DNA from: Nemertoderma westbladi
Taxonomy: Eukaryota > Animalia > Xenacoelomorpha
NCBI GenBank assembly: GCA_032718475.1
Contig: JAUCBJ010001957.1
Span: 1 to 64,000, forward strand
Length of the DNA: 64,000 bases
Direction of reading: 5' to 3'
The notes under the pieces: generated by a model
Told to the model about the DNA's origin: nothing
The model's database searches: none
Seen by the model: the letters and a program-made list of their open reading frames with translations, nothing else
Translations under genes and position numbers: made by a program
Part shown: one piece after another, positions 35,124-64,000 of the stretch
Position numbering within the stretch: the first letter of the stretch is position 1
Layout: each line of letters opens with the position of its first letter

Positions 35124-35156
35124 CGCGTGTGTTTTTGCTTTGTAAAATGAGTTCGG

Positions 35157-35334
35157 CATCTGGGTCACCAGTTTAGCGTGAGATAGTGAGATAAGTTTAG
35201 TGTATTATTATCATTTGATCATTAAAATAATAGGTAATAAAAGTATTAATACATACATATACACGTTTATCAGTACAAAGTGTAGTGATCTAGCTAGCTA
35301 AAATAATCATTGTTTATTGTTTTGCCTAGCAACA
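35157..35334 (-). repeat. Short 5' LTR (~35172-35334) and tRNA-Trp-like PBS (TGGTGACCCA, 35161-35170)
   Basis: Minus strand TGTTGCTAGG...CACGCTAAAC TGGTGACCCAGATG. There is no partner LTR to confirm the limits. Confidence 0.6.
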
Positions 35335-41225: not shown

Positions 41226-42608
41226 AGAGTTTATGCGATTATTCGCAACATTCATATCCCCAAGTTTATTCCTACAGTAATTGTGCTTGTTATATATACC
41301 GTTATAGTTAAATTAACCCCGGTACTACATCAGGGCTGCTTGGCGTAGGTAAAGACTGGTGATTTTGTGCCCCGGTCACTCCAGCAGATACCGTGGTTCT
41401 TTTAGCTGTTCAAGTATTTTTAACTACTGATTATTTGTTGTATAAGTACTTGTACCTAATTTAGGGTTTAGTGTACAGTGCTTTCCGAAGTTGATTAGTG
41501 TGTGGGCAGTATATTTGTGTTGTAAAGTGGTTAATAGGCACGTTGGTTCTGGTAGACCGCGGTAATTAACTTCTAGGTAGGAACACTCCGTGATACATAA
41601 CGTAGTACTTATAGCGATACGGCTATAAGTCGTCAGACGGTGGTATTTTCCTATCTGGACAACGCAGTATATTTACTACTACTTATTATTTTCAAATACA
41701 TTTTCCTATCTGGACAACGCAGTATATTTACTACTACTTATTATTTTCAAATACCGTAGTACCCTGTCCGTTGTAATAACCAGATATTCTAACCCTTTGT
41801 TAGGCTGGTTTGTAGACTTCTTGTAAAATTACCCTAAAATTTCGTACTTGTAATTTTTTGTGTTTATTTAGAGATTGTAATCTCACACCGAATTGTACGT
41901 AATTTGTAGTATTAAGTAACTTAGGTAAATTAGAATTATTTGTTTTAGTGTCCAACAAGTAGCACTTCACTGAGAGCGCACAGCTTCTGTGTAGTGACTC
42001 CCCCCAGAAATAATAACATTTATTTTAAATATTGACAAAAACCCATTAAACGGGTATATATATTATAAATCAACTCAAACGATTTATAAATAGTAGGCCT
42101 GCCATACAACAATTAGGTCTCAATATCAGTTGGACTACTGCTCAAATAACGGTAATAAAGTAAGTAAAGTAACCAAGTAACCCCTAAAAATTCAGAAATT
42201 CAATTATTTAAAATAATTGACATACCGGTATTCACGATAGGCTTATTATTTATTTCTATAAATTTAGGCTAAATTATATACCGGTATTCTGTAATTAATT
42301 CTAGTCTGTAATTATACTTATATATATACATTATAAGTGTAAGCTGTATACTGGTATTCACGATAGGCCTATTATATATTTATATATATTTGTGCTGAAA
42401 TTATATACCGGTATTCTGTGACAAACCTAGTCTGTAATAATACTTATATATATACTATAGGCATACCGGTATTCTAATATATTATATATATATCACGCTA
42501 CACTGAGTAGCAGTATCGGTAATCAATTACTAAGCTAACAGCGATACTGAATTACTAGACTTGCTTTAACTGTAATATAGCAGTAGGCATTCAACTGTAC
42601 AAACAAAC

Positions 42609-43334
42609 ATGTCTGACACAAAGCAAAACCTGTCAGACAGTCTCCTAGATACGACCATCTGTGACCCAGACAGGAGTGTGGAACGTGTGAGACCGAAGTT
42701 CAACTCACCTCCTACTGTAAGAAAGATCATTCCCCCAGTAGTAATATCAGACCCTAGCCTAGTCCAACATCGTAGGTCTATCATAGGCACTCGAGCTCAG
42801 GTCAAGCAGGACCAAGAAGCAGCGGAACAGCAAATACCCGCGAGCCGAGAACTTATTTCTCAGCGGCCCGACAGCTCCAGTAGTGCGGATACTGTAGAGC
42901 TGACACCCGAGTGCGGAGCAAAGATGGCAGATGCGGTTTATTCGGATCCCCTTCTCATCCTTCCTGCAGCCGTACTCACTAGGGTATTGATTGCGGTGGA
43001 GGAACACCAGATTGATTGGGCGAGAAGTAAGCGATCGACCAAGGATAGTTATGCGGGATATACAAGGGAAGAACTGAAGTCTATTGTCGAGTCGCAATGG
43101 AACTTCCCCGGACCCGGACTCCCGTTTGACTTATCGGAAGCTGCCTGGGAAGACATACACAGGATGGGAGTGACAAAGGAAACCAGCGATCCAACTGTGT
43201 GGAAGAGGTCAGCAGCCGGATACGTACAGGGATTCTTCAGCTCCATGGAGCGATTAGAGGAACAATTGTTTAGACAACCACAAGGACCTCAAGAGCAGGG
43301 AGAGCTGCTACCCAAGGAGGTGAGGTCTCTATAG
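42609..43334 (+). CDS. Orphan 241-aa ORF upstream of gag, unknown function
   Basis: ATG in aaacATGt context; 726-nt uninterrupted frame, clearly more GC-rich than the flanking AT-rich DNA; no recognisable domain. Confidence 0.6.
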   Translation: MSDTKQNLSDSLLDTTICDPDRSVERVRPKFNSPPTVRKIIPPVVISDPSLVQHRRSIIGTRAQVKQDQEAAEQQIPASRELISQRPDSSSSADTVELTPECGAKMADAVYSDPLLILPAAVLTRVLIAVEEHQIDWARSKRSTKDSYAGYTREELKSIVESQWNFPGPGLPFDLSEAAWEDIHRMGVTKETSDPTVWKRSAAGYVQGFFSSMERLEEQLFRQPQGPQEQGELLPKEVRSL

Positions 43335-43750
43335 GGTGGCAGCAACAGGCGGCGGCGGACTCGTGAGGGTCTGGGGGCACGTTAAATCTCTCCTATAGTG
43401 CAAGGGAGTTACTGAAGGCCCTCGTGTCTAGCGAACCATGAATCAACATGGTGCCGTGGTACCGTCTAGTCGGCCTGTTGCCGTACTGCCAGTCCTGTAC
43501 ACAGTAGGGGTGGTGGCTTAGTGTGATCTGTGGTTTATGTGGTCTATGTGGTAGGTCTATGTTTGGTATGTATGAGTTGACCAGACTTTTTACTGTCTCC
43601 GATCGGTTGCCAAAACGTGTCTTTTCCCAGGGTAGCACTATTGGAATGGAGGTGTTACATCGGAATGGACAGGTTTCTGATGATTCTGTTGGTACTACTA
43701 TTGGAATGGAGGTGGCACCCGGAATATCGGCTGCAAGGAGGGGTTGGTGT

Positions 43751-44106
43751 TGTAATAATTTGTTGTATAGGTTATAGTCATGATCACTATAATGGTTACA
43801 GTGAGTAGAGTATATGATTAGTATAAAGTGATTTAATAATTGGTTTGTAAACGAGTGTGTATGTAGTGAGAAGTTATCCAGCTGTGATGATTTGGATGAG
43901 AGAATATGTATAGGAGAGGGGTGGTGAGGAAAGGGGTTTTTATGTAGATTATTGGTGTAAACGATTGGATATAGATAGAGTAAAAGATATATTATAATTG
44001 TTTTGTGTATATTATATGTATTGTATCAATTATTGTGTATTTATATTATATTCTATCTTAAAAATAACTGAAAGCATTTTAAATATTTCGAAATAAAACG
44101 ATTACA
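43751..44106 (+). repeat. 5' LTR (356 bp) of the nested element
   Basis: TG...CA with 6-bp terminal inverted repeat; AATAAA near its end. Confidence 0.95.
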
Positions 44107-44122
44107 AGCTATCACCGCAATT

Positions 44123-44893
44123 ATGTCATTAAAGTTAAATCAAATCATACGTCCGTTTAGTGGTGATGACAAAACTGTTAATTTTAACGAATGGATGAAG
44201 AAATTTCTATTAGTCGCGAAAACTCAGAAATGGGAACAGTTGGAAAATCACCTGCCATTGTTGTTGGAGGGGTCAGCATTCACGGTGTATGACCAATTAT
44301 CAGATGAAGCCAAAGGAAATATAGATAGTATCGTAAGCACGTTGACCACCGCATTTTCGTTGACACCAACACAAGCATATAAAGCTTTTACGAAACGTAT
44401 GTGGTCTCCGGATGAAGCTGTTGAAGTGTACCTGTCGGACTTGAAACGGTTAATTTTGCTAACTGGAATCAAACCATCGGACATTGAGCGTATTCAACCA
44501 ATAATAAAAAGTCAATTTGTTAGCGGATTACCCAATGACCTCAGTAGTAAACTAGTTACAATGAATGCGGTTGAAAGTGAATTGATGAGTTTAGAAGAAT
44601 TAGTGACGAAAGCGAGACGTATCATCGCAGATCGAAAGTGCGATGACGGTATAGGAATTATCGGTGCTGTTGGGGAACGCCGCCGTCCTTATCAGCACCC
44701 ACATAATGATGGTGATCGTAGTAACAGAGCTACAGCGTCGTTTATCTGTTACAATTGTGGGAAACCGGGACATATTTCGTCACAATGTCCCTCAGAGAGA
44801 AAAACTGTCAAATGTTACCGCTGCTCTGGTTATGGCCATATTGCGAGAAATTGCGGCACTAAGGAATCGGGAAACGCGAATGGGGGGTTGTAG
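44123..44893 (+). CDS. Gag with two CCHC zinc knuckles
   Basis: CYNCGKPGHISSQC and CYRCSGYGHIARNC; in-frame G GGA AAC at 44869-44875. Confidence 0.92.
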   Translation: MSLKLNQIIRPFSGDDKTVNFNEWMKKFLLVAKTQKWEQLENHLPLLLEGSAFTVYDQLSDEAKGNIDSIVSTLTTAFSLTPTQAYKAFTKRMWSPDEAVEVYLSDLKRLILLTGIKPSDIERIQPIIKSQFVSGLPNDLSSKLVTMNAVESELMSLEELVTKARRIIADRKCDDGIGIIGAVGERRRPYQHPHNDGDRSNRATASFICYNCGKPGHISSQCPSERKTVKCYRCSGYGHIARNCGTKESGNANGGL

Positions 44894-47800
44894 GGGTCGC
44901 CGCTTTAACTTCCTCCCGCGATTTGTTGCCAAGATGTTCGGCGAATATTTCATCAACAGACGGATCAGCTAAGTATATTTGTAGAGTAGGTGTTGACTCT
45001 TATTGTTCAAAGACTATTGTATCATCAGGTTTTCTGTATGGTAAATCTGAATTTATATTTTCTAATGCCAATTGTTCAGAGACTTTTATGATGTTAAACG
45101 GTACCAAAATTTATACTGTAGGGAAGATTTCAATTTATTTGCATAATTTACCTGGTATTGTTGGAGGGTTTTGTTTTGATGCATGGGTAGTAAACGGATG
45201 TGATATATTTGATGTTGATGTTTTATTGGGAATCGATGCAATTGTGTGTTTGGGTGGTGTGAAGATACATTCATCTGATTGTATATCTGTTTCGTCAATT
45301 GAATTTTTAGGATGTGGATCAAATAATTTACGTCCAAATTATTGTGGTGCACTGACATCAAATAGTGATAATGATAAAGTTAAGTCAGATAGTACAAATT
45401 CTAGTGGAGACAATAATGAGCTAAATTCAAATACCGCAAGTTTCTTTTATCATGATAACGGTGATATCACCATCACTGAAAGTGATTTCGTAGTAAAGTT
45501 TGATAGTTTATCAAAGTTGTGGACCGTAAATTGGGTGTGGAAGAATAATAAGCCCCCAATTCATAAAGTTGGCAGTGGTATTGGTGATTACAATATAAAG
45601 TTATCAGATTCACATAACACCATGTTTGAGAATGAAATTCAAGTTTGGTTGACAAATGGGTTTATTGTAGAATATGACCCGATTGAACACGGTGAAATTG
45701 AATGTGTGTTACCGTTAATGCCTGTGGTCCAGGAACACAAGATCACAACTCCTGTGAGACCTGTATTAGATTACTCAATGTTGAATAGTTGCTTGGTGAG
45801 TTTTCCAGGACAACAAATGGGAATATGTAATAATAAATTGCGAAACTGGCGACAGCGTTCATCAAATAGTACGATTATAGATATTAAAAAAGCATATTTA
45901 CAGATAAGAGTTGCTCCACATTTGTTGAAATATCAAGCACTTTTATACAAAGATACTATTTATATAAAATGACACGAATGGGGTTTGGATTAGAGATTGC
46001 AAGAAAAGTTTTAGAAACTGTGATTGAGTTCATCTTTAGTGTTAGCAAATTTCCCGAAAATGCAGTAGATTTCTATGTGGATGATGTCTATTGTGATGAG
46101 AATTTGGTATCTGCAAGTTCAGTGGAAATTGCTTTGAACAATTACGGTTTACCCACAAAACCCCCTACAAGTATCAAAGAAAATGACGTTTTGGGCTTAC
46201 ATGTATTCGAAGCAAATTCTGAGTTGTGTTGGAAGCGACGTAACAAAGGTGATCTTATACCAGATTTATTTAGCATGACTCGAAGAGGTCTACATTCATG
46301 GACTGGTAAGGTAACTGGCCTATATCCCGTATGCAGTTGGTTACGATTAGCCTGCAGTTGGTTGAAACGACAATGTATAGGAGATTGGGATAGTCCAGTT
46401 GACTCATGGATATTAAAATTGGTGAAAGTTACATGGGAGAGCATATGTAATAACGATCCAGTATGTGGAGTATGGAATGTAAATACTCTTAATGGAAATT
46501 GTGTGATGTGGTGTGATGCTAGTGACATTGCTAGAGGAGTTCTTCTAGAAGTCGATGGTAGAATAATTGAGGATGCTGCTTGGCTACGAAAGAAAAATGA
46601 ATCAAAAGCTCATATCAATGTGGTGGAATTAAATAGCGTGGTCGATGGAATCAATCTCGCAATAGAGTGGAATATTAAACGATTCACATTATGTTCAGAT
46701 TCACAAATTGTGTGCAGGTGGGTTGAAGCAACTCTGAAAAATATACATCGAATTCATGTCGGGGGAATGTATATGAATTTGGTAAAACGTCGTTTAGAAC
46801 TGTTGCTAGAGTTAGTACAGTTATATGGTTTAGATGTTGAGGTAAAGTGGGTGAAATCTGAACAAAACTTGTCTGATAAACTAACGAGACTACCCAGAGG
46901 TTGGAAAGAGTCTGCCACGGTAAATCAACCTGAAATCGAGACATGTAATACGGATAAGTGTTCGGGAATCGGTGCTGTAATGTACCATAACGATAAAGAA
47001 CTATATTGTGGAATTAAATTAGAGCATATAAGAAGAGATCAAATTCAAGACAAAGATATAAACATAATGCTAAGTGATCCTTCACATATCTCAAAAACAA
47101 CAAACTCATACAAAAATGTTAGATCTCAGTTAATGGTGTATAGCGGAATGTTAGTTCGCAAAGTGAAAGTTCCTCCAAACGATTTATTAAATGTTCCAGT
47201 AATTCCAAGTAGTTTAGTCAACGAAGCTATTAAGAATGTCCACGATTCTTATGGTCATCCATGCAGTGAAACTACAAGAGAAATAATCAGGCGGCAAGGT
47301 TATTTCCCCAATATGATGTCGCAATGTCAGAAATTCGTTAAAAGTTGTGAAAGGTGTTCATTATCCGATCCTAAAAAACCAGACGATATTAACCCAACAA
47401 CCCAAATGGTAATACCTGATCGTCCATGGCAAGTGGTTCAGATTGATACCATGAAAATAACTGGTGATATACACTTTGTAGGGTTACTGGCTATGTTTGA
47501 TGTATTAACAAAGTATGTTGAAGTAGAACTTTTGAAAGATTATACTAAAGAGACTGTTGTGTCCAAGTTGCTGAAGATATGCCGACGATGGGGTCCCCCC
47601 GAGGTGATACGTTGCGATTCTGGTACTGAGTTATGGAATTCCATGTCGAAAGCATTATATAACTCTTTTAATATTATTGTTAGACGCGGAGCAGTGAGAC
47701 ATCCAAGAAGTCAGGGAGCAGTAGAACGTTTTAACAGATCATTTTTAACATTGGTACGAAAAACGTTAGAACGAAGTACAGATTGGGCTGTAGAATTGGA

Positions 47801-48419
47801 TCAATTGTTATATTTCTATCGTCACAGACCTACGACTACAACTGCCATGAGTCCTACAAAAGCGATGTGTGGTTGGGATTGTTGTTCTAGAAATATCGAT
47901 AAGAAATCTGGGTCATCATGGTCCCAAGGTCTAAATCCTTCTTTAGTTGATACTCTGGAAGAGTGTATGTCAAAATTAGATGGAATAGACATTTCAACAC
48001 CACAAATCTTTGCCACTGGAGATTTGGTGTATTTATTACGTGAAGATAGGTCGCCTAAACACATGACACAATGGACAAAGGGATGGACAGTGACTGATAT
48101 TATAAACTCAACAACAGTACGAATATCTAATACCAATAAGGAGATCAAAGACAAATTTGTAAACATTGATATAATAAAACACGCAGTAGAAGTAAATATT
48201 GATGACCGTTTGGAAAAAGCAAAGATTAAAGAGGATGATAATATAATAAAATCCGATGACAGCGATGATTTCTTAGAATTTGAATGTGGAGAGTTTGATC
48301 AAAGCGATAACAGCAACCAAAATACTGATAATGACGAAAATGAAGATGCAGTAATACCACGACGATCTACACGTGTGAGACGTCCTGTTGATCTGTATGG
48401 AAATCCAAAACGTTATTGA
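44869..48419 (+). pseudogene. Pol (PR-RT-RH-IN) reached by -1 frameshift; one extra frameshift in RT near 45965
   Basis: VDSYCS (protease site), RPVLDY, DIKKAYLQI, RMGFGL, FYVDD, WCDAS..HINVVEL..SDS, H-x4-H..C-x2-C, and QID..CDSG..GAVERFN. Confidence 0.88.
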
Positions 48420-48476
48420 TGATGTTACTGAGGGGGATGTAATAAATATGATAGACGGGGTTCTATCAGAGGGGGA

Positions 48477-48828
48477 TGTAATAATTTGTTGTATAGGTTA
48501 TAGTCATGATCACTATAATGGTTACAGTGAGTAGAGTATATGATTAGTATAAAGTGATTTAATAATTGGTTTGTAAACGAGTGTGTATGTAGTGAGAAGT
48601 TATCCAGCTGTGATGATTTGGATGAGAGAATATGTATAGGAGAGGGGTGGTGAGGAAAGGGGTTTTTATGTAGATTATTGGTGTAAACGATTGGATATAG
48701 AGTAAAAGATATATTATAATTGTTTTGTGTATATTATATGTATTGTATCAATTATTGTGTATTTATATTATATTCTATCTTAAAAATAACTGAAAGCATT
48801 TTAAATATTTCGAAATAAAACGATTACA
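48477..48828 (+). repeat. 3' LTR (352 bp) of the nested element
   Basis: Matches 43751-44106. Confidence 0.95.
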
Positions 48829-49781
48829 CGAGTGAATGATACTCTGGAATCTGTGGTTTGTGTGTGGACGATCAGTGGCAGTTTGCTTGAGCTTTCTGTT
48901 GCTGTGGGTACGTGGTATACGTGAGTGTATGTATGGCCACTGCGAGTGAGTATGGGAAACCTTGCCGGTTGGTTCAGTCGCCGCTGGTTATTAGTAGGAC
49001 CATATCTTTACTGCGCCCCAGCATATTTTGTGCACACAAAGTTATTTTGCCCTGACGGCAAAATAAGGTACTCTCGGCTCTTTTATTAGTCGATACAATT
49101 TTGTCCCCTCTGATTTTGTCACCGATTTGTCTTTCCCGATTATGTCCTCTGTGTGTGCATGGTATGCGTCAGATTTGTGTTTACCGTTATGTACTTGATT
49201 TCGTGAGCATCTATTGAGTACACGTGTACAGTGACTGGTAAGTGGTGACTTGTTCTTAGCTTTAAGCTAGACAGTATTGTTTGCGGAACCGACTTCCCCT
49301 CAATACTGCCGGCGAGGCGGGTGAAAACGTGTCAAAATTCCATGTTGGGTAGCGCAAGCCCACTTGGGACAAGACCGTCGGTTTGGCTCAAGGGCGACCT
49401 TTATGCTCGATCGCTATCGACTGGTCCACCCGCCGGTTGACTCTCTGAGTTGGCTCAATGTACAGTCAGGCCACAGTAAGTTGACAGTAGCCGACCACCT
49501 GGCTACACCGATGAGCTGTGCCGGTGTGATCGGGGGATTGAAAATTGAACCCGGGAAGCATCGGGCTACCCTCCGGCCTGGTCTGATAAAAACGGAGTCA
49601 GACTGGCCCCAAGGGTGGTGGGACAGCGTCCGCCTCGTGGGTGCGCCTCGGAGAGGAGCCCAGAAGGACGCAAGCGTTATCAAGTTCGAGAAAGAATTCT
49701 AAGAATCAGACTAATCCTATCGGCCTTTGAGGAGGCTTCGAAAAGAAGACAAGACACGTCGTTGCAAGTTGCCGTAAAGAC

Positions 49782-52700
49782 TTGGTTACAGTGGGTGAGT
49801 CTCCAAGTTCAAAGAACTGCCCTGTGGAAATCTCAGTTAGCTCAACCCTTGGAGAATCAACAGACACCACCTTTTCCCAAGTGGAAAGTGAAGCGACAGC
49901 AGAGAAACCGCATAAGAGGGATGCTATTGACATCTATCTGTCAGACTATCAACGCTTTGTAGGTGACGAAGAGTTGAGGAGACGGCTGGATGGACTTAGC
50001 CCTAATAGTGAAGGAGCCAAGCTTGTGTTGGACGCAATCGATGCGGATATGAGAGCTGCGAACCAAGCTAAATTTGATGAACGCCTCCGCATCGCTAGAG
50101 TCCAAGAAGAACAAGTAAAGAAAAAACATATAGAAGACAGAAAGACAGCGGCAGTGGCAGCAGCAGTGGCAGAAGCGGAAAGAAAGGCGGCAGTGGCAGC
50201 GGCCGAAGCGGAAAGAAAGGCGGTAGTGGCAGCGGCAGAGGCAGTGGCAGAAGCAGAACGGAGGGCATCTGAAGAAACAACCCAACTAGAGTTGGAAAAT
50301 CTTCAAGAGAATCAAGACTGCATAAATAAACAGTTAACAGCTAGTCAAATGCAGATGATGAGTCGATCTACTCCCAAAAGACAGGGATATACATCATCTG
50401 AGGAAGGCGATACCACCGATCCTGAAGGCGGAGGAAATCGATCTCGCCTAAGCAGACGTAGAAGAATGTCCCACCGTCAGAAATTGCCTGATTTGCCCCC
50501 AACTGTTAGAAGGCAACTAGCTAGCACAGACTTAGTAGTACAGAACCCACAGACCAAATAATTAAAATAGAAAGACTCCCTACTATAGTAGATGAGCCTG
50601 AAATTATTAGGCCTGTTCTCGAAGCCACCCCTTTGGTGATAGAGACACCTGTACTCCCAGAACTTACCTCTAAATTCCCTCTGCACAGCACTAAGCTACC
50701 TGTGCCCAGCAGAACAGCCCATGAGACAGTTCATGTCCTGGACTCCGAGCGAAATATTAATGATTTGTCGCCCGTTGTCCCTCGTCCGCCCGCTACAACG
50801 TTGGCGGCTCCCGCTTCGGCGGTCGAGTGGGTGGATGAGAGACGGCGGGGGATGGATCTCCTGCTCGGGCAGATGCAGGAGACTGTTAAGCAGTTCAAGG
50901 GCACAGTAAGGGAAAGTAGGTTAGAGTTGCAAGAAGTGCAGCAAAGTATCGCGTTAGAACGCGATAAATTAGTAAATACACAAAAGGGTATACCACCACC
51001 CCCGGTAACAATGTGTCAACCTGTTAGGTCTGAAGTATCTCATGCGCAAGGTGTGGAGCCTACACGTATCTATACTGCTAGCGAAGTAGAAACTCCTATA
51101 GTGAACCCTATTAAGGGTAATTATAAACCTGTTGACAATGATATTCCCTATAGACCTGATCATAATCCGAGAAATTTATATACCGATAACTCGATATTAA
51201 ATAACACGATGGCCCAAGAAAGTTTTATGCGTCAAATGGCTAGAACCGAAGCCCGTCAAGCGGTAAAGGTGGGAGAGATAGTCAAGTTCAATGGAGATGA
51301 GATGAAATGGTTACCTTTTAATGAATATTATAAAGATAACATACAGAACTCTGTGCTATCTAACGGAGAGAAACTTAGATTCCTCATCGAGTGCTTGGAA
51401 GGATCTCCCAAGTTAATGGCGTTAAAGTTTATTGGACATCCAGACGGATTAAGACAAGTTTGGGATACACTAAACATCAGGTATGGTAATAGGAATAACA
51501 TAGCTAAATATTTGTATGCAAAATTAGTAGCGCCCCGAAAGTTCATTAGCAGCGGGATAATAGAGTTTTCCGATGAGATTCAAGAGATCTGTAGACAATT
51601 AGATTGGTTAGGTAAGTCTCATGAATATCAGAGTTCTATGGTTATTGGAGCCGTGGCTTCTACTTTACCGAAGGGTGGAGTAGGTACACGCTGGGATAAG
51701 AAAGTGTTATATATGATGGAACAATAACGACGAGACCCTACCATGGCTGATCTCATGTCATTCTTAGATGGAGAAGTGAAATTACAGCTCCTAAGGCAGT
51801 CCAGAGAGAAGACACCGGAAAACAAGGTAAGTGAGAAACCCGTTTCTAGGAGAAAAGTAACACCAGTGTGTTATACCGACGACGGCGAAAGCCAGACTTC
51901 TCAAGGAGAGGATAGCGGGAAAGACACTGAAAGATCTTATTATGTCAATAAAACGCCTAAAGAACAGGTAAGTAAATTCAAGTCTCGAACCAATGACAGG
52001 AGAGAACAGGTAAGAAAAACTCCTCCTACGTCTCCTAAGAGAATTCAGGTAAGAAAGCCCGAAGAAAGAACGAGTGTGCACAATGTTATTCAAAATAAGG
52101 TAAGTAACATCAAACCGAAATGTGTGCTATGTGACGGGACCCACCGTTTGAATATGTGTGATGAATTCCTAAAGAAATCATTAATGGAGAGACGGGAAGT
52201 CATGTGGGATAAGCGGTTGTGTTATAATTGCCTCAGACAAGGACACCAAAGGCGAACCTGTTACTCCGACACAAGGTGTGCAAAGTGCGATGCGAAACAT
52301 CATATCTTGTTGCACACAGAATTCGAACGAAACAGTCCGAGTCAGGTAAGTGATTCCGAACTACATGTCCAATTCAGTGATGTGAACGACACTGACCAAA
52401 GTTCTGAGATGGAAGGATTCTATACGGATGAATTCTCCGACGAAGATGAATCCTGTTACATGATAAATACCGCAGTGTATCGAGCACTTACGTATGAAAA
52501 AGACACAGACAGCGACCTCACCCTAACTACTTCTGATCGACAACCATCTTGGAAAGCGCCAACTTCCAATGTAGGAATCCGAGAATTTCCTGTAGTACAG
52601 TTAAGGGTCCACGGACCTAAAAGGAGTTATATAGTGAACGCCCTTCTTGACTCCGGTAGTACAGGAACATTCATCGACAAAGAACTAGCCGAAGACATCT

Positions 52701-55700
52701 TTGCTGGACAACCCAAGTTCCGAACTAAGCTAAACATGTCAGGAATTATGCAGGTTTGGAAATCTACAGTAATTTAGCGGATTATTATGTAGGTGCATTG
52801 TCCACCCCCCAGGATGAACTAGGAGAACATAGTATAAGGTCAGTAAAGATGGTGGCGATAAAGAACTTCGCTACCAGCCAAGTGGAACCTTATAACTGGG
52901 ATGAGGACGATTTCACCCCGCAGCTTGAAATACCTAGATTCGCCACCGATTACCCTGGAGTGCAAATACTCATCGGTCAAAACGCGCATGAAGCGCTCGA
53001 GACATTGGAGAAACGGCCTGCTCAACCGCAACCACTACAAGCTTATGAGGGAAGAACTAGAGTGGGTTGGTACTTTACTGGCCCTTCCCGTAGAACTCTC
53101 ATGGAAAGATTACCGAAAGATCAGGTATATCAAGTAAGAGAATGGGAAGTTGAGAGCAGTGAGTTAGACGATCCAACTGAGGGAACACCATACTCCTCAG
53201 ATAATGACGATGTCCACCAACTCTTCGACGAGGAGAATACCATTGATCTCCTTAAGGTAAACGAGACTTGGCAAAACCAAGTGAACTTATGTCAGCTCCT
53301 TCGTCCATCAGAACGAGACGACTATAACGACGAACTGAATGACGTCATTGAACGTTGTAATGCCAAGACTCGGGATGAACACGCCGTACGATTCTTTACT
53401 CAAGAGGCTGTAGAGCCCAATTCCTACGATAAGGCCCTATCGGTAGAAGAAGAAAGAGCCAAGCAGATCCAAGAGACAACTACACGTTCTCTTAAAGATC
53501 AAGGTAGATATGAAATCGGTCTACCTTTCCGAAAGCGAGAACCAAAGTTCATAAACAACAGACCCTTGGCGGAGAAAAGAATTGCTCAACTACATCGACG
53601 CCTTACGGCAAATTCTTCAGCTAAAGAAATGTATCAAACGCAGTTGAAGAAATTTATTAGCAAGGGATATGCGGAGCGAGTACCGGAAGAAACACCTATA
53701 ACTGAGAGAACATATTATTTAACTCACCATTACGTTCCCAAACCCGGTAAACCCCATGAGGTACGAGTAGTGTTTGACGGCTCCGCCCTCTACATGGGCC
53801 AATCCCTTAATTCCGAATTGTTACCCGGACCCAACTTACTCCAATCCTTGTTGGGAATACTCTTAAGATTAAGACAATATTCAATCGCTTTTGCCTCTGA
53901 TATAGAAGGCATGTTCTTACAAGTCAAGGCGCTGGATAGGGATCGAGATAGCCTACGATTTCTGTGGTGGCCTGAAGGAGACCTCAACCAGAAACCGGTG
54001 GAGTACTGGATGACCATCCAGGCTTTTGGGATAATCTCAAGCCCTTCAAACGCCTGTTCAGTGGTGCGCACCACTGCGGATGACAATCGAGAAGCCTTCT
54101 CTAAAGAGGTGATTGACAACATCAAACGGGATATATACATGGACGACAATCTAAAGTCCCTTCCATCAGTCGAAGAAGCCATTGATGTCGCTAAAGGAAC
54201 GGTAGAGTGCTTAAAAAGAGGTGGATTTCGATTAACTAAATTCACCAGCAACTCCCGTGAGTTTCTGGAGTCGATCCCGGTAGAAGATCGAGGAGCGAAA
54301 GACCTAGATCTAATCAAAGATGATCTTCCAGAAACCAAGACACTTGGTTTGAAATGGGACACAGAGAGAGATATCCTGTTTTTCCAGCTAAAACAGCGAG
54401 ATAATCCAGTTCGGACTAAATGGATTTGTTTAAGTATCCTGAGCACTTATTTCGATCCATTGGGATTTATTAGCCCAGTTATATTGATTGCTCGGAGTTT
54501 AGTACAACAAATGTGGCTTGAAAACCACTCATGGGACGATCCACTTAAGGGAGAATTATTAAAGAAGTGGATGAAATGGGAAGATTCTCTACCAGCCATT
54601 GAGAACTTTATAATTTCCCGTTCATATTTTGGTCATGTTATTCCTATCAACTCCATGTGTTTGGAGACGCCAGCGATATGGGAATAGGTATAGTAGCCTA
54701 CCTAAGAGTGGAAACTCCGGATGGAATCAAAGTCGCCTTGGTTACCTCTAAGGCATTGATAAACAACAAGTTGAAAGTTCCTCAAGAGGAGTTAAAAGCG
54801 GCTCTATACGCTACAGCCATCGGCCGGAATGTAACAGAACAGATCGACTATCCACTGGAGAAAACTGTCTATTGGACCGATGCTTTACTCGTGTTGGAGT
54901 ATATAACCAATGAAGTCTGTCAGTTCAGTGTCTTCGTTACCAACAGAGTAGCCATTATACTTAGTCGCACAAAGATGGATCAATGGAGACATTGCCCCGG
55001 AACGATCAATCCAGCAGACATCGCCTCCAGGGGAGCTACTCCACAAGAACTGGTAGATACTCCAGACTGGTTAGGTGGACCCGAATTCCTCTACAAAGAA
55101 GAAGAAGAATGGCCTCCTCATCTTACTACGGCAGAGATCAGACAGGCCAAGGGAGCGGAGAAAGTCAAACCTAAAACTCGGGCGAGTAAATCGAAGTTAT
55201 TTAAACCTATGGTAGATCTGTCTGTACTACATACTTCCGGAGACGACGCTTTGGATCAGAGGCCCACAGCCATAAATAAGTCTGTTGTGGAAATCCGTGA
55301 GAAGGATTGGAAATCTGGAATACCAGACGTCTCGCAAGGACTCTCACCTCTCCTGCAGAGAACGATATATCACTACAGTTCCTGGAATCGGCTCTGTAAG
55401 GCCGTTACATATTTAAAAAGATGTTTTCACCATCACTACTCCGGGATGAAGACCAATAGTGATACCGCTCTGCTGACATCGGTGCAGGTCCATGTTGTTA
55501 AAGATCTTCCCAAATATAAGATATCCGACAGGTTTCTGAAGGAGAAGATCAGTTATCAGGAGCATGAAGAAACCAACAAGCAGATGCTGAGACTCCTGCA
55601 ATGCTATGATGATTCCGATAAGTATTTCCTGTTGTTGAGAAATCCACAGATGCGCTTAAGGGATCGTTTCTCTAGCACAATGATAGATGGGTTGATACGT

Positions 55701-57011
55701 GTTGGCGGAAGATTAACGAATGCTCCATTATCCTTTGACACTAAGTTTCCCATACTCATTAGAAATCTTGAAATACAAGTCAAGATGATTGTAGATGTTC
55801 ACAGCAAACTTTATCATGCTGGTAGAGAACGAGTTCTTAGCGAAATTCGAACTCGCTATTATTTTTATAAACCCCGTAGAGCTCTGAACCAAGTTCTTAG
55901 GAACTGCATACCCTGTAGGAAAGCATTCAGTAGGCCTTTAACACAGCGAGAGGCAGAATTACCTAGGGAACGAGTAAGCTTCTATGAACCACCCTTTACT
56001 AATACCGGTGTAGATTTATTTGGCCCTATTGAAGTATATCGTGCTAGGACTATAGTCAAGAGATGGTGTGTCATCTTTGTTTGTATGACTTGTAGAGCTA
56101 TCCATCTCGATATGGTGAACGATTTATCTACCAACAGCTTCCTATTAAGCTTACGACGACAGATCGCTCGCTTTGGAACTAGTAACACGATAAGATCTGA
56201 TAAGGGAACAAACTTCATTGGTGCCAACAATGAAATCAAAGCTTACGTCAAAGATTGGAACCAAAGACAGGTGGACGATCAGCTAAGGGTAACAGCGTCT
56301 AGCTGGACCTTTAACGCCGCCGACACCCCTTGGTGGGGAGGAAGTTGGGAGAGATTAATTAGAAGCGTGAAGACCGCATTTCACTTTATAGTGCCGTGCC
56401 GCGCGTATCTCACCGACGAACTTTTGCGGACGTTAATGGAGGAAATCGCCGCCTATCTCAACGAGAGACCGCTTATGCCAGTCTCATCGAGTCCCGATTC
56501 CCTGGAAGCACTAACACCCGCGCACTTCCTACTGAAGAAACCTGTAGCCATGCTCCCACAATCGGAAATCACAGACGGAGACGAATACTGCCGGCAAACT
56601 TGGCAACTCATGCAGTTGTTATCCCGTTGTTTCGCTGACCATTTCGAAAAACACTATCTGCCCACACTACAACTTCGAACGAAGTGGTTTGCGCAGCAAG
56701 AAAACGTCAGCGCTGGAGACATGGTCCTTATTGTGGATTCAGATCTTCCACGTAAGCGGTGGCAGACAGGTCGTATCATCGAGACTCACATCTCGGATGA
56801 CGGTTTGGTGCGATCGGTAGAACTCGTCGTCATGCGACGTAACTTCAAGAAACTGGGAATTGTCTTCGAGACACAGCAGCTCAATCGCCCAGTTGGTCGT
56901 TTATGTTTACTGGAAAGAGACAGAGAACTCTCCGGAAACTATGGAAGACAAGATACTCTTCCCACGACCACCTCCCTAATCCAACAAACATCTAGGGACT
57001 CCCCAGCTTAG
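49782..57011 (+). pseudogene. BEL/Pao gag-pol polyprotein with three frameshifts and one stop
   Basis: KFNGDEMKW..LSNGEKLRFL..RYGN (BEL gag); triple Cys/His cluster CVLCDGTHRLNMC, CYNCLRQGHQRRTC, CAKCDAKHH; ALLDSGS; RVVFDGS, DIEGMFLQV, YMDD; LHVFGDAS, NPADIASRG; GVDLFGP, RSDKGTNF, GGSWERLIR; GLVRSV. Breaks near 50540, 51725, 52760 and 54650. Confidence 0.95.
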
Positions 57012-58649
57012 TAGCGTATGGAGTGGGTGTGTGACCATATTATTTTATATTCTTATCATTTTATATTTATGTATGTATTATTATGTAATTTTCTTATAAT
57101 CGTTTTCTTTAATTTTATTTAGCAGAATATTATTTTAGCGATTATTTAGTAGATTAGTGCAATATATATTCGTGTTTATTATTTAATTACTTATATATTA
57201 TATATTTAGTGCGACGGCGAGAAATAATTCTTTTTCTTTTTCCTTTTCCTTACTGTCCGTATTACATTACAAATACGTAACTACAATAAGATGAAATATC
57301 CGTACTTATTAAAGTACAATAAAGCTCCTACTATATTCAAGTAGTATTGGTAAGTAGAGTATTAGGAATGCAAAATTCAGATCCTCGTGTCTCGGCTAAA
57401 CCAAGCTCTGGGTAGACCTTGGAAACGACTTGCCTCTTCTCACTGACATTGCTTCGTGCGATATTGCTCTCATACCGTATATTAAATAATACATATAGTA
57501 GCATGATGTCCCTTTAACAGTAGCGTATAACGCAAAATAAATCTGTTAAACCCTTTGACCATCTGCAATTCTAGTCGATTAAGATATCGTGGCACCCACT
57601 GATATACTTGAAAGACAAAATTCTAGAATCAGTGGTTAACGTCCCCAGACAAGTTCTGGAATAAACTGGTGCCTATCCTAAATATTAATTATTAATATTT
57701 ACAAAATCTGTCAAATTTTAGATCCTTTAAAATTCTGGTCTATTAAGATATCGTAGCACTTACCGATATTCTTAAAAAGACCAATTTCCTAGAATCAAGG
57801 ATCCCAGTCCCCAGACATGTTCTGGAATAAAATTGTGTCTATTTAACATTAAATAATAAAATTTACGGGAATAAATTTAAATTAATATTTTAATGAATTT
57901 AATAAATTTTCATTTTTATACAATTTATAACATTCCCAAAATTCCTTTAATTAATAGATCATGGGAGCGGAGATTCACTCTATTAAGTGTATTAGTGTGC
58001 GAGAATCTCCAATATATAGTCAATAGCCGATAAAATTCATAAAATCATGTATAGAGAGGATATTGACCATTAAAGAATTACTATTAAATAGCATCCCAGA
58101 TCTGTATGCATGAGAATTACCCTAATTCTACCGCTAGCTTTCCATAATGTCACCATGGCAACAACCACGCTAGAATTAGAAGTGAGTTAAACGAACAATA
58201 GAAAGCTTGCCCCATTGAATAGCATAGGGAATCAATAGCGCACTGCTAGTATCCAAGGATACATAATAATAAAGTGACATTCTGGAAGGCACTGACTAAC
58301 GGACAAATGGCCCGAATGTGTACAGTTTGTGACAGTTGTGTTGAATTTGTGCGTTTATAGGTGAATGTTACTGCTAAAGTGTGTTTACAGTAGCGAGTCG
58401 CAATTGTGAAAGTAGCCCTACTCTGCCGAAAGAACCTGAAGTACATCTAAGCCTTTGGGACGGACAGTGGAGTGACTTGTGCCGGTTATCGTTGTCGTTG
58501 TGTAGCTACATCGTTGGCGAAAGCACAGCGACGACGGTACATCGGCGCTGAGGATCTTGCACTGTCCGGGGGCAAAGAGGGGTAGGCAGCGACGCCCGCT
58601 AGCCTAAAATATAAACTCATTATAATATAGATAAACTCATATAGCAGAT

Positions 58650-61538
58650 ATGACTGAGTTGATAGAAGATGATCTTGGTATCAGGGAGCGATATACTCTA
58701 CCTTTACAAGCGTTTGTCGATAGCTTGATACGCGGCGACGCTGGTCCAACTACTACGGAGAATGATGGTCGTTATATCGAACCGCCAATGTCCCCGGAGC
58801 AACTTACGCGCGAATTGGATTATAGAAAGTTCACCGCTCGCTATACGCATCGTAATGGTACGTATATGGACTTCTTAACTACTGGCCATCCTATCGATTT
58901 ACACGATACGGACGATGTAGACACCGAAAGGGAAATGGTTTTATTTAAATATCATACCCAGCGGAGTCGGAACGATAAACCGAGAATAGAACACGAGAAC
59001 TCTATTCGAAACAGACTCGAAAGGGAAGACGTTGAAGAGCCGGATAAACGCAGCGACTTCAACGATTATCTGGAATTCCTGAGAGAGACATATCTCAATA
59101 TTGCCAGCCAACAAAATCTCGAAACTCGATATCCTCAAGGTATACATCATGATCCTATGATAGAACTCAAACGACTCTATTTCACTATGATGTATCTTAC
59201 CGCCGATTGACCGCTACCTGTCGTCCCAGATAGCTTCGAACAGATGGAGGAATATTGTAAAACTGGAGAACGATCACCCGCATTTCCCCTGCAGGACGTG
59301 CGTCTTTGGTATTACTGCGACGAATGCCCTAGACCCAATCAGCAAACGGAAAGACATAAACATCCGCGGAGACGTTGCGCTAAACACAGTTTTACACGAT
59401 ATACTTATGGGAGTTTCGAGCGAAACCTGTTCGACGTATCACCTACGGTCGCTCGGCTCAAACGATCCTTGAATAAACCAATGATCAGAGTTCCGGAATA
59501 CTCAGTCAGACCTCCTCATTCCTCAGTTAGACCTCAGACTCTTGATCCTAATAGTATCACGGATCCTCCCGAACTGTACTCACTGTTCAAAGATCTAGTG
59601 TTACCCGAACAGTTGATCGGTGGCACTCCGGTAGTGGGCTCGCTAGATATTCGTCAACCCTACCTAGCCGGATTAGGACGCGGTCATCTAATATCGCCGT
59701 TTAACCCGTACAACCGTCCCGGCTTCACCCCGATACAACCCGTTACGGAAGTCGAAGAGAGTGTCGTACGAAACGCTTTAGACGCTATTCGGCAGAAAAT
59801 CGGAAAGGGAACTTACGATTATTTGGAGAAACGTAAATTGCAGCAACAAGTCCAAGCGGTGAAAGAATTAGCTTTACCCCAGTTCGATAGAGAAATACAA
59901 AATCTCGAGGAGGACATCGAACGTGGACGAACCTACTCTTTACAAGAGTTCCTAGATGAGTGTTTACAACAACAAGCGGAGGAAAATCAGCTCGAGGAGA
60001 GACATATAGAACTAGATGAGAGAGAAGAAGCAGCTTTAGCCCAGCCAGAAGCTCAAATCCTTATAACAGATCTCTATTCTAAAACCATTATCCATCCTTC
60101 GATGGTTCCTCATTTCGGAGACAAACTCTTCACCACGGCACAGCCTCAACCGGTTGATATCAACCTAAGATCTCGAGATCTTATCTCTGACGCTCCCATG
60201 TTGCAACGTCCGCTCATCGAATCCGCTCGTGTCGATGGTATACTCGTTGAACCTCCGGACAATAGAGCGGATCTTGTCCGTCGCATGGTACACGATGTTA
60301 ACATACGCGCTAAACCTTTACCGGACTCGTTTTATGGGATCAAAGATCACCCTTATTACGTCAATCTAACACAATATTACATGGTAAAACCGGAAGATCC
60401 TACACATAGTCTGAGGTTTCTACCACTAATAAATCCTCTCGATCTTGTCGAACTCGAACAACTGCAGAAACATCTGGATCAGTTAGTTAAAGTAAACTCA
60501 TTTCGAAAACCATATAATGTTTCCAGAATAGAGAAAGAAACAATACCTCCGTATAATCTTGATGGATTCATCAAAACTCGATTAGTACACTGGAATCTTT
60601 ACGTGTTATTCGAGGAGGAAAGAATACAACGATATGGAGATGTGGAAACATATACTACACAATACTTAAAGTATAGAGATCTACCTAATGCTAGCGAATG
60701 CGCTACCTTGTGGCATCCAGTGGGAATGACTCTCGAAAACGCCACTAAAGAGTGGAACGAGACTCTTAACGTTATCGAGATGTATGGAGTTGTCACTTAC
60801 GATAACGAAGGTAGCGTTCCGGTTGGAGAACTGGGAACTACGCGAATGATACACATACGAGGACTCGCTGGTTCTACCCACATATTTACTCGAGCGTGTT
60901 CCGATGTGATTGATTATTCTTTTGAGACTCTTACTGAGACACAAAAGAAACTCAGACATGGACAATTCGAACTCGCGCAGCGTTACGTCACCGACACCGA
61001 GCGCAAACCGGCCATGGGTATCGATGGATCGATGTTACCCCAGCCCGTGCTCGAGATGTTGTTTAACGAAAGAATCCTTAAAATCGGCTCAGCTGTTTAT
61101 GGAGATCTCCAAAACGACTTTCGGAACATGGAAAACATTCCATACCCTTTCGTTGATACTCAGCTGATTGCTCCCTGGGCAGAAGGCCGAGGTTTCTTCC
61201 GCACTATGTATGCCAATACACCCAGCGGCATTACTAAAGTACAACGAACCTCTATCGGACATCTTGCCTTTCAAGAATACGGATGGAATTTCAAGGTTGG
61301 AAATCCTACCAATTACCAACAAGTATATGGAGATCATTATTCTCGTTTATACTTTGATGGACCATTGACCGCACCTGGCGCCGTATATAGCTTTATGAGT
61401 GTTCCACTTCGTCCCTCCTTAGCTATATACACGATCTTTGAAAACGCAGCACTTGCCGGTTGGCTAGCCGTGCAGTTGTGCAGTCGTACCATGTATCATT
61501 ACTGTAGGCCTATTATGATTAATGACAATAATTATTAG
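58650..61538 (+). CDS. Accessory ORF3 (~960 codons, one internal TGA at 59208-59210) with C-terminal DnaQ/RNase D-like 3'-5' exonuclease domain
   Basis: ORFs 58650-59210 and 59244-61538 share a frame. Motifs VVTYDNEG, LPQPVLEMLFNERILKIGSAVYGD, FVDTQLIA, SIGHLA..YG and LAIYTIFENA follow WRN/EXD/RNase D order; there is also a C-x2-C...C-x2-H cluster and a coiled-coil-like segment. Confidence 0.72.
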
Positions 61539-63296
61539 ATTAGCACAACTCACTAAAAATAAAATTCAATATCTCAATGACACACGGTCTGAAAATATGA
61601 CAGACTACAGCAAGCATACTGCCTGACAGACAAATCCGAAACCTGGAAACACCGCGGTGGTACTGTAATGATAGGCCTACAGGTACAGAGACACTGTCAG
61701 ACTGTTGACTTGACAATGATCTCCTATCTTATCTGGACCAATCAGGAAACAGTATTCGCCTACGCGTATGTATAGGCTTATGTCAAATCGCTCAATGTAA
61801 TGTATAGATACGTGGATACGTACTTACATACGTGTAAAAGTTTAACCCTATGTTTTCTGGTTTTATGCTATTTTAGTTGTTAGTATTCCATTAGGAACAT
61901 ATATCTGCATATGATATTGGACAGTTCAGTAGGGAACATACCCTTAAATAAGCTCCAAAAGTGGGTTCTTATTTAAGGAAAATGGCTCTTATTTAGGGGT
62001 TTTTGGGCCTTTTTTGGATATTTTTTCGACATAATATGCAAGAACATATGATATTGGACAGTTCAGCAGTTGGATATAGCAGAATAGACATGATATAGAC
62101 ATACTGCAGTACTGCTGTATTGTAGTGCTGCAGATTTAGACCTGGCCTACCTGAGACTGGCAGACTGGAGGGAGACTTTTGCAACTGCAGCTCAGCTGTA
62201 CCAGACTGTCTGTATCATTACCGTACCGCATACCGGCAGACCGTCAAAGCGTACCCCGTACTACTGTACAGCTGTACTACAGTCAGACAGTACTGCGGGC
62301 TGGCGGGGTTCCTTCCGTTCCTGATCAGCTGATATGACAGTACAGCAGTATCATACCAGGATACTTGACACTGCTGTACTGTTGACTGGTTGACTGTGTA
62401 GGGTAGGCCTTTTACTGCTGTACTGTAATGCCGGCACAGCATTCTTAAAAATGCAGCTGCAATGCAGCATGCCTGTAAAAGCTTTTGCGGAATTAGCCGG
62501 TTATTTTCCCCGTAAAGTACTCTGTAGTTGGTTTAACAGGCATAAAATGCCGTATCCTTACTGTACTGGTGTTTTAGTGGACATAAAAAGCCATTTCTTC
62601 TGTATGTGTACTTTAGCGGACATAATTAGCAATTCTATGTCGCAATACGCGAAATCCAAGAGGAATTCAAGAGGAAACAGTGTAGTTACTATGACGACAG
62701 CTAACAGCTGAGCTGTACATGTGTAGCTTTTCCTTGTTCTCTGGTGTTTCTTTGTTCGGTCAACCAATCAGAGCGATTCTCCTGCTTTTTGTACAGAAAC
62801 CTCCGAGAAATCGCGCAATGCATTATGGGTCAATGTTTATATTTTGTCCTGAGCCCAGAAGACCGGCTTTGGAATCTCTGTGTTTTCAGTCTTTAGCCCA
62901 ACATTAGTAGGCTTAATTATAGAACGTATATCTGTTATCAAACAAACCTTACTTACTTAACAATTCATACCATACCAAATCACATATCATAACAAGTCAT
63001 ACCTTAACATTGTACTGCTATTTACTGTCGGTTATTCATTATATCAGTTGATGGAATATTATTATATTTGGAATACCGATAAATAATTACAAAACCCTCA
63101 ATCTTCTTGATATACTGAAGGTAAGAGAGACCGGTTACATATAACGATTGCGACTTACATTAAAGTGGTTTTTGAAGTGAATCTAATGCTATTTCATAGG
63201 CACTACATGTATTGGTTGTTGTTCTCTTTATATGTGACTAAAATTAGTGAAGGTCGGCAGATCGGTGTGCAGCATTGTGCAGTATTGTGTATGATT
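61491..63296 (+). repeat. Long direct repeat, copy 2 (partner 38183-39973), interrupted on the right by a TIR element
   Basis: Near-identity with copy 1 stops exactly at CCCTGCAAACA (63297). Confidence 0.95.
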
Positions 63297-64000
63297 CCCT
63301 GCAAACATTTTACGTTAATTACGCTAATCTAACGTTAGACTTTAGTCTGTTTTAGGTTAGAAAAATAAAGTTATAAAAATAACTTAGAACAAACGTTTTC
63401 TAACGTCTTATAATCGTTTAAAAACTACATGTCTAAAATCAACTAAACCCAAACGTTAAACTGACGTTCAATTTTAACATAGATTTTTAACGTTATTTTG
63501 AAACGTCTGACATTGGTTAAATTTAATCATGTACAAAAATGACTAAACCCAAACGTTAAACAGACGTTGAATTTTAACATCAATTTTTAACGTTATTTTG
63601 AAACGTCTGACATTGGTTAAATTTAATCATGTACAAAAATGACTAAACCCAAACGTTAAACAGACGTTGAATTTTAACATCAATTTTTAACGTTATTTTG
63701 AAACGTCAGACATTGGTTAAATTTAATCATGAACATAAATCACTAAACCCAATATTAAACAAACGTTGAAATTTAACATCGATTTTTAATGTTAATTTAA
63801 AACGTCTGACATTGGTTAAATAGAATCATTCTTGTATTAGAAAATTGTAATGTAATTTAGTCACGTTAATATTTATTGCAACAGGTCCACTGGAATATAG
63901 TGTTGTAATTATTCAGTGTCATGCAACTATCACTCAAGTTGTACCTTGTGGTCTTACTTTTGTACCTGGGGGGGGGGGGGGGGGGGGGTGTGGTCTTACT
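63297..64000. mobile_element. Left part of an EnSpm/CMC-like element with 100-bp subterminal tandem repeats
   Basis: Starts CCCTGCAAACA; ctaaaccc(a)aa..ttaaac recurs at ~63443, 63543, 63643 and 63743; aacgtt-rich like 35741-37295; right TIR not in the window. Confidence 0.65.

Follow-up and report, generated by a model that had tools for sequence, protein, structure and literature searches.

A candidate accessory gene with a DEDDy-like exonuclease domain downstream of pol in a high-copy BEL/Pao element of Nemertoderma westbladi

Within a 64-kb stretch of the Nemertoderma westbladi contig JAUCBJ010001957.1, analyzed as a whole and hereafter called the window, a retrotransposon of the BEL/Pao type is followed on the same strand by a long additional open reading frame (ORF), which we refer to as ORF3. 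The frame extends from an ATG at 58650 to a TAG at 61538, spanning 962 codons, and begins 1.64 kb downstream of the pol stop at 57011. A first-pass annotation, made from the sequence alone, had already noted this long same-strand frame behind pol and had proposed that it encodes a DEDDy-like 3′–5′ exonuclease in place of env. We find that ORF3 is a real accessory gene, of a kind that has already been described, and new in its carrier, size, architecture, and active-site variant. Copies of the element were compared by means of contigs from four public runs (X1, X3, and X4 from organism A; X5 from organism B), in which contig depth is a guide to abundance and, by the tool's own caveat, no copy count. 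The features of ORF3 and of the spacer that precedes it are the following.

58650–61490, plus strand: ORF3, 947 element-derived codons, truncated at the 3′ end in the window copy
59208–59210, plus strand: in-frame TGA, private to the window copy, splitting the frame into 186 + 775 codons
59316–59387, plus strand: C-x2-C-x16-C-x2-H cluster (C-x2-C at 59316, C-x2-H at 59376), putatively a zinc site
59805–60060, plus strand: Q/E-rich, probably helical stretch (residues about 390–465)
60660–61490, plus strand: predicted DEDDy-like 3′–5′ exonuclease domain, the C-terminal 277 residues, from sequence motifs and profiles
57012–58649, plus strand: AT-rich non-coding spacer, with depth as high as that of pol and ORF3 and no Rfam match

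The frame is more than a product of chance, since base composition predicts about 53 internal stops and the frame has one; the other five frames hold 41–73. That single stop, at 59208, is private to the window copy, because the base reads otherwise in nearly all of the contig depth that covers it in all four runs (68, 37, 3, and 5 contigs in X1, X3, X4, and X5, respectively). The roughly 960 codons originally proposed are thus borne out as a frame of 962 codons, apart from this in-frame stop and the last 15 codons, which are foreign to the element (see below). Among the 12 best-supported indels, the only one in ORF3 is of 3 bases, and three in the spacer are of 1–2 bases. Seven of the best 40 of 2761 differences fall in ORF3, at codon positions 1, 2, and 3 in the numbers 2, 2, and 3, and are mostly private to the window copy. 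The guanine-plus-cytosine content by codon position (0.56/0.38/0.41) resembles that of gag-pol; codon usage does not discriminate, with a correlation of 0.59 between ORF3 and gag-pol vs 0.57 between the nested Gypsy element (see below) and gag-pol.

ORF3 itself is not env-like. It has an acidic N-terminus, 9 Cys in 962 residues, and no family match, and neither a signal-peptide-like N-terminus nor a transmembrane segment was found (the best 19-residue Kyte-Doolittle mean is 1.33), in keeping with what the first reading of the frame had reported. The Cys/His cluster and the Q/E-rich stretch that it had placed upstream of the exonuclease-like domain are likewise present. The share of Q+E reaches 38% in residues 401–450, and no clear heptad pattern was found in this stretch (best a/d hydrophobic share, 0.42). 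The N-terminal part is charged and proline-rich and proved as unrecognizable as first described: its 680 residues have no match in the homolog search, NCBIfam, PHROGs, or the ESM Atlas, and the N-terminal 483 residues after the stop have no usable Atlas match.

The motifs from which an exonuclease had been proposed are all present in the C-terminal domain: YDNE (60798–60809), the ExoII block LPQPVLEMLFNERILKIGSAVYGD (61035–61106), DTQL (61155–61166), and YTIFE (61428–61442). The key positions are the ExoI Asp (60801) and Glu (60807), the ExoII Asp (61104; invariant in all six aligned rows), the DTQ (61155), and the ExoIII Tyr (61428) and Glu (61440), of which the last stands at the place of a canonical Asp. 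Profile searches lead to the same superfamily. The two best NCBIfam matches are RNase D models on the ExoII block (E-values 0.0033 and 0.021), and the RNase D score, 16.7 bits, lies below the equivalog cut-off of 299. In the ESM Atlas, 30 of 30 named matches carry PF01612 (scores 0.92–0.93), and the unfiltered run returned the PF01612 clan at 0.90–0.91. Matches in PHROGs are all weak, the best named one being an exonuclease (E-value 0.25).

An exhaustive search of 1.84 billion representatives yielded a single homolog of the domain, hereafter P0001 (E-value 4e-4; 31% over 112 residues). P0001 is an unnamed 648-residue ENA singleton with a faint PF01612 match of its own (E-value 0.2), a disordered, arginine-rich linker, and several CCHC knuckles, and is probably another mobile-element accessory protein. 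It aligns in register with ORF3 at D-x-E (D-V-E in P0001), GS-x3-DL, DTQ, and Y-x3-EN, and the four acidic positions and the Tyr are kept in both proteins at 28–29% identity. Because the ExoIII Glu is shared with so distant a relative (YTIFE in ORF3, YIYCE in P0001), we do not regard it as decay. The domain reaches 39.8 bits with P0001 and 20.2 bits with a fungal profile; the corresponding values for the best of 1000 shuffles are 6.6 and 5.7 bits.

A scan of metagenomes with the shared ExoII pattern retained four loci of 264 candidates, all of them PF01612-like and three above the Pfam cut-off, and hhalign matched the domain to these loci (94%, 35 columns). With a six-row profile, the only PDB match is the WRN exonuclease (E-value 0.0025). 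In a second AlphaFold model, of low confidence (predicted local distance difference test, pLDDT, of 35.6), the secondary-structure elements come in the DnaQ order and D-x-E lies in the first strand (strand 44–54). Foldseek gave no match at an E-value of 0.001 with a model of pLDDT <50, a confidence at which the result is uninformative, and VIA-align on such a model gave only NTF2-like matches (Z up to 5.9, residues 5–105), with no DnaQ-family row listed. On the motifs and profiles, the domain very likely has a DEDDy-like (DnaQ-type) fold.

Word-indexed searches over limited length ranges gave 0 of 6444 candidates for ORF3, only P0001 itself for the domain (1 of 907), and 0 of 4883 for a two-row profile. 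Locus scans of metagenome, viral, and prokaryote contigs found no relative, and tblastn gave no match in phages and one chance match in plasmids. Three of the metagenome loci (L002:466–1612, L003:3190–3971, and L004:561–1620) hold intron-split canonical DEDDy domains, with YAALD at ExoIII, on fungus-like contigs beside transposase-like frames; they are possibly Dada-like elements.

The first-pass annotation had attached ORF3 to this particular pol, a linkage upheld by continuous, very high depth from pol through the spacer into ORF3 in all four runs. In X1, the three spacer bins (57078–58679) have depths of 968,000–1,032,000, pol 291,000–799,000, and ORF3 141,000–758,000, against 115 for the nested Gypsy element. 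Depth in X3 is also 10^5–10^6 from pol through ORF3, and in X4 and X5 it is lower but equally unbroken. At the left edge, depth climbs from about 10^2–10^3 to 10^5–10^6 at about 39.1 kb, the 5′ end of the element, and it is about 6,000 just after 61.9 kb. A contig over 61471 has a word depth of 17,000 (X1) and 24,000 (X3) vs 27–39 for low-copy flank contigs. One X4 contig with 40 differences spans 58375–58784, across the ORF3 ATG. The only large cluster of loose ends among the best 24 of 2666, with 116 contigs, lies at 62473, outside the element, and those in the spacer number 1–13. Because very high depth continues without a break from 39166 across pol, the spacer, and ORF3, we assign ORF3 to a high-copy family. 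This BEL family is present in hundreds of copies, a statement for which depth is no count, and ORF3 is very likely part of the BEL element.

The spacer carries a single TATAAA at 58610, 40 bases upstream of the ORF3 ATG. We considered the spacer as a 3′ long terminal repeat (LTR) and rejected this, since it has no similarity to the element 5′ end. The TATAAA is closely preceded by a purine-rich run resembling a polypurine tract (58568–58586), and at 57539–57866 the spacer holds a tandem duplication of 165 bp (76%).

The carrier, from its 5′ end to the sequence that follows ORF3, comprises the following features.

39166–42608, plus strand: 5′ end and long leader of the BEL element; starts with TG, coincides with the depth rise, and has a second copy with the same start; no LTR boundary or primer-binding site recognized
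42609–43309, plus strand: likely N-terminal part of gag; an ORF with no Pfam match, with a joint 43309→49677 in 4/4 runs
43310–43750, plus strand: 5′ part of a gag insert of 1289 bp that has features reminiscent of a group I intron; lower depth, empty-site joint, exon end pairing with a guide-like sequence
43751–48828, plus strand: low-copy element of the Gypsy type, nested here and foreign to the BEL family, with LTRs of 356 bp; LTR pair 98.9%, depth about 60–175, joint 43754→48829 in 3/4 runs
48829–49676, plus strand: 3′ part of the 1289-bp gag insert, from depth and pairing; no Rfam match
49677–57011, plus strand: rest of gag-pol, with DUF1759, three Cys/His knuckles (52121–52315), protease, reverse transcriptase (RT), RNase H region, integrase, and DUF5641
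61491–63295, plus strand: 98% duplicate of 38183–39982 (flank plus the first 0.8 kb of the element 5′ end), not element 3′ sequence

DUF1759, Peptidase_A17, DUF5641, and three gag knuckles are traits of BEL-type elements. The upstream frames match DUF1759, Peptidase_A17 (twice), integrase H2C2, and DUF5641 above the Pfam cut-offs, so that the initial assignment to BEL/Pao now has four families behind it. The order after gag is also that of BEL/Pao (protease at 52643, RT YMDD at 54136, the Peptidase_A17/RNase H region, and integrase from 55800), and together with the three knuckles these sequence features support the identity of the carrier. The gag-pol region comprises about 2680 codons and the leader 3.4 kb. 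From 39166 to 61490, after subtraction of both nested inserts, the element measures 15,958 bases with its 3′ end excluded; the family element is at least 16.0 kb long even without the missing 3′ end, and the unusually long genome claimed for it at first reading holds. The gag-pol of the window copy is broken by stops and frameshifts, and this copy is dead.

A second 5′ end of the same family lies at 3035→1 of the window on the minus strand. It has the same TG start, a different flank, and 80% identity over 3.1 kb before it runs off the window. A 290-bp tandem duplication is present within the leaders of both copies. Eight CA..TGG candidates for a primer-binding site occur in 39166–43460, none recognizable by eye as matching a tRNA 3′ end, and TGGTGCCGTG at 43449 was rejected as such a site given its location inside the gag insert. 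We also rejected the 42609 ORF as a separate upstream gene: it is joined to gag in other copies, and because the joint 43309→49677 is present in all four runs it is likely the start of gag. Joints that skip about 1.7 kb of pol (53211–54978; 55165–56882) occur in 4/4 runs and suggest that non-autonomous deletion derivatives of the family have been amplified.

The 3′ end of the element is missing from the window. The segment 61491–63295 is low-copy except for its last 0.8 kb and supplies the last 15 codons and the stop of the window ORF3; because it duplicates 38183–39982 and is low-copy outside that last 0.8 kb, codons 948–962 are not element sequence. Since the element breaks off at 61490, the true end of ORF3, the polypurine-tract region, and the 3′ LTR are not in the window. 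Whatever follows ORF3 in complete copies is lost with them, and the first-pass proposal that it stands in place of env is borne out only in that ORF3 itself is not env-like. Depth collapses after 61490, and X3 contigs match the left duplicate exactly, one of them unbroken over 38129–38444. The runs support the left copy only, and the 61490/61491 junction, unseen in them, may be an individual-specific rearrangement or an assembly (haplotype) mis-join. We rejected 38183–39982 and 61491–63295 as an LTR pair: the duplicated sequence begins 1 kb before the element 5′ end, in low-copy DNA, and has neither a polypurine tract nor a target-site duplication. In both places, the element 5′ end is immediately preceded by 44 bp of another high-copy repeat (39122–39165; 62430–62473), from which 116–117 contigs diverge.

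The 1289-bp gag insert (43310–43750 plus 48829–49676) is missing from other copies in all four runs. A 10-base pairing links the end of the exon to a guide-like sequence and places U-G at the junction, and the insert has a terminal G; a GACUG/CAGUC pair at 49419/49463 occurs in what we take to be the R- and S-like context of group I introns. No Rfam match was found for 48700–50000. The nested Gypsy-type element (43751–48828) is young and low-copy, with LTRs 98.9% alike and DUF7047. No target-site duplication was found around it within the window, and empty-site contigs at its insertion site hold a few extra letters. Elsewhere in the window are satellite arrays at 15600–24500 (about 9 kb, with 11/15-base units) and smaller arrays of 19-, 25-, 37-, and 100-base units at 6100–6900, 11600–13600, and 63400–63830, as well as a decayed second Gypsy-type element, gag to integrase, at 30513–35204 on the minus strand, recognized by eye from translations.

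Our best reading of ORF3 is that it would encode an accessory 3′–5′ RNA exonuclease acting against small-RNA silencing, with anti-silencing as its main role; we give this a probability of roughly 45%. The gene would be expressed from its own short message, started from the TATAAA 40 bases upstream, and its product would be a cytoplasmic accessory protein, separate from the polyprotein that is packaged. Localization to RNA granules could come from the Cys/His cluster and from the 680 charged, proline-rich residues at the N-terminus; a domain of the RNase D/WRN class might trim or degrade the 3′ ends of host small RNAs aimed at the element, two-metal catalysis being retained despite the Asp-to-Glu change at ExoIII. 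The idea of a cytoplasmic, RNA-trimming protein made from its own message draws on the separate gene, the TATAAA, the lack of membrane features, the RNase D-class domain, and the knuckle-bearing relative: P0001 couples its exonuclease-like domain to CCHC knuckles, an RNA-binding context that supports a role on RNA. The available text of Rodriguez et al. (2017; PMC5408684) names RNA 3′-end processing and silencing as options for the DEDDy ORF3s of rotifer retroelements, and remarks that small-RNA pathways include the DEDD derivatives Mut-7, EXD1, and Maelstrom. The ORF3 domain is probably an active nuclease.

Several observations weigh against this reading. For the domain, Pfam PF01612 gave no match up to an E-value of 10 and no PDB sequence matched it alone, and ExoIII lacks the canonical Asp of YxxxD; on this last ground we call it a DEDDy-like variant and not a canonical member. 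The initial exonuclease call stands on the NCBIfam RNase D matches, the PF01612-bearing Atlas matches, and the motifs shared with P0001, and does not extend to canonical membership. The ExoI register with P0001 is sensitive to how the aligner is set, appearing under 83 of 256 settings and in none of three other alignments. Both the WRN match and the hhalign match lean on fungal rows picked by the query's own motif, and the two-row profile gives RNase D only at an E-value of 2.3, or no match. The AlphaFold models are of low confidence (pLDDT 31.5 alone, 35.6 with six rows). The linkage to pol rests on short contigs, the longest listed piece in the region being 581 bases, and no single record joins pol and ORF3; the loose ends behind it are the best 24 of 2666 mentioned above. 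Some copies have deletions in ORF3, as they do in pol (joints 58677→58887, 58711→58851, and 59370→59421). In the available text, the rotifer DEDDy ORF3s show no clear link with copy number (PMC5408684). Finally, we infer the role, localization, and substrate of the protein from its sequence.

The change at ExoIII invites a different explanation, that ORF3 encodes a DEDDy-fold pseudo-nuclease of the EXD1/Maelstrom kind, which would bind RNA ends or silencing proteins as an adaptor or decoy and cut little or nothing. Besides the replaced Asp, two stretches of about 29 and 25 residues that canonical relatives lack and the very large non-enzymatic N-terminal part would suit such a protein. Dead enzymes usually lose their carboxylates, however, and here the four acidic positions and the Tyr are intact in both ORF3 and P0001. 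Literature searches turned up no usable data on an Asp-to-Glu change at ExoIII. Inactive DEDD proteins are known in Piwi-interacting RNA (piRNA) biogenesis, yet the rotifer ORF3s also have an Asp-to-Glu variant, DEED (both from the available text of PMC5408684); on balance we think a pseudo-nuclease unlikely. A length of at least 16.0 kb, against the 4.2–10 kb given by the International Committee on Taxonomy of Viruses (ICTV), together with a leader in which no primer-binding site was recognized, could instead point to a role in replication within the particle, where the enzyme would trim tRNA primers, genomic RNA 3′ ends, or single-stranded cDNA overhangs for clean copying and integration of a long genome. 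The nearest solved relative by profile, WRN, is a DNA exonuclease, and the DEDDy domains of Dada transposases have been proposed to process 3′ ends (PMC3706591, available text). Such a role is unlikely given that ORF3 is a separate gene 1.6 kb behind pol, outside the packaged polyprotein, that most BEL elements replicate without such a domain (PMC8742986; PMC3118150, as far as the available text goes), and that RNA surveillance suits the RNA-binding knuckles of P0001 no less well.

Proofreading for the RT would have a parallel in the nidovirus exonuclease, which proofreads for its polymerase. The genome is long, and DEDDy domains proofread in family A polymerases (PMC5408684, available text). 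The domain is, however, neither fused nor adjacent to the RT, the copies differ widely (most contigs are under 99% alike), and 30-kb Burro elements are described without an exonuclease in the available text of PMC6431247, so proofreading appears unneeded at 16–20 kb. We hold it to be highly improbable, and the least likely of the three functions that the first-pass annotation had offered, the others being the trimming of small RNAs or primers and counter-silencing. It is also improbable that the likeness of the motifs is vestigial or due to chance, or that ORF3 is a separate repeat or captured passenger behind pol. The lack of a curated family match and of a confident fold, the absence of a contig spanning pol to ORF3, and an N-terminal 680 residues without a homolog speak for this; against it, three independent profile routes (NCBIfam, the Atlas, and P0001 with its PF01612 match) reach one superfamily, the 39.8- and 20.2-bit scores far exceed those of the shuffles, depth is continuous, and of the loose ends listed none in the spacer forms a cluster comparable to that of 116 contigs at 62473.

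Beyond the anti-silencing exonuclease that we favor lies a bolder proposal, which we consider somewhat unlikely as a whole: a giant BEL/Pao lineage (>16 kb, hundreds of copies or more) would carry an active exonuclease whose D-E-D-E(y) clade is undescribed and also takes in at least one unrelated knuckle protein; the enzyme would suppress piRNA or small interfering RNA silencing and would have contributed to the amplification of the family, with the 680-residue part as a new scaffold domain. If ORF3 is what we propose, a third retroelement class draws on an exonuclease ORF3 gene pool known since 2017 from low-copy rotifer elements. The abundance of the family makes function testable: selection can be analyzed over many natural copies, and RNA and small RNA should be plentiful enough for an effect to show. 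The known size range of BEL/Pao would be stretched beyond 15 kb; elements this long would have been missed because the main survey used an upper filter of 15 kb (PMC3118150, available text). An enzymatic suppressor of small-RNA silencing encoded by an animal retrotransposon would, if shown, be a notable mechanism.

The first-pass annotation had named precedents in nematode BEL elements and in bdelloid rotifer retroelements. The rotifer precedent stands: DEDDy ORF3s with a DEED motif, their activity unassayed there, occur in Athena/Terminons as well as in the LTR elements Juno and Vesta (Rodriguez et al., 2017, PMC5408684), an account repeated in the accessible portions of PMC5718144, PMC6431247, and PMC6338049. 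The nematode precedent was not found in the literature searched, and the word 'nematode' is absent from the available text of PMC5408684. We found no report of a BEL/Pao element with a DEDDy or exonuclease ORF, although such cases may be present in Repbase or GyDB, in subscription journals, or in the supplements of PMC3118150; 'exonuclease' occurs 0 times in the available text of PMC3118150 and PMC13524379.

By description, the ORF3s of Juno, Vesta, and Athena resemble ours in being separate same-strand frames downstream of pol, without a transmembrane segment, RNase D-like, and with an Asp-to-Glu variant. As far as the rotifer reports are available, the differences lie in the carrier (Juno/Vesta or Penelope-like elements there, BEL/Pao here), in the motif (DEED vs D-E-D-E(y)), in the size of ORF3, which here has at least 947 residues with a 680-residue N-terminal part of no recognized family, unlike the rotifer ORF3s, and in copy number, low for the rotifer elements and very high for this family. 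Members of the Belpaoviridae with an env-like ORF3 (roo, Tas, and carriers of Chuviridae glycoproteins) share the DUF1759 gag, the three knuckles, the order protease–RT–RNase H–integrase, the DUF5641 tail, and a third gene after pol (PMC8742986; PMC3118150 and PMC13524379, in the available text). Their third gene is a fusion glycoprotein, whereas the one described here is predicted to encode a soluble exonuclease-like protein. Their length is 4.2–10 kb in the ICTV profile, a descriptive range and not a rule of membership (PMC8742986), vs at least 16.0 kb here, to which the 3.4-kb leader and the gag-pol of about 2680 codons contribute.

With the PF01612 class (RNase D, WRN exonuclease, EXD2, Mut-7), the domain shares an ExoI D-x-E in a predicted strand, an LP...l...i.KiG...i..D block, a D-t/l-q strand, and a terminal Tyr-bearing helix. 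It differs in having YxxxE in place of YxxxD and inserts between ExoI and ExoII and before ExoIII, and it scores below all curated cut-offs; neither an HRDC nor a helicase domain was found in ORF3. The Dada DNA transposons of Laccaria and Ectocarpus also bring a DEDDy domain into a mobile element, although there it is a canonical DEDD domain inside a DDE transposase (PMC3706591, available text). In P0001 the domain is N-terminal and followed by the disordered stretch and the CCHC knuckles, whereas in ORF3 it is C-terminal; the two proteins nevertheless have the same four acidic positions, including YxxxEN.

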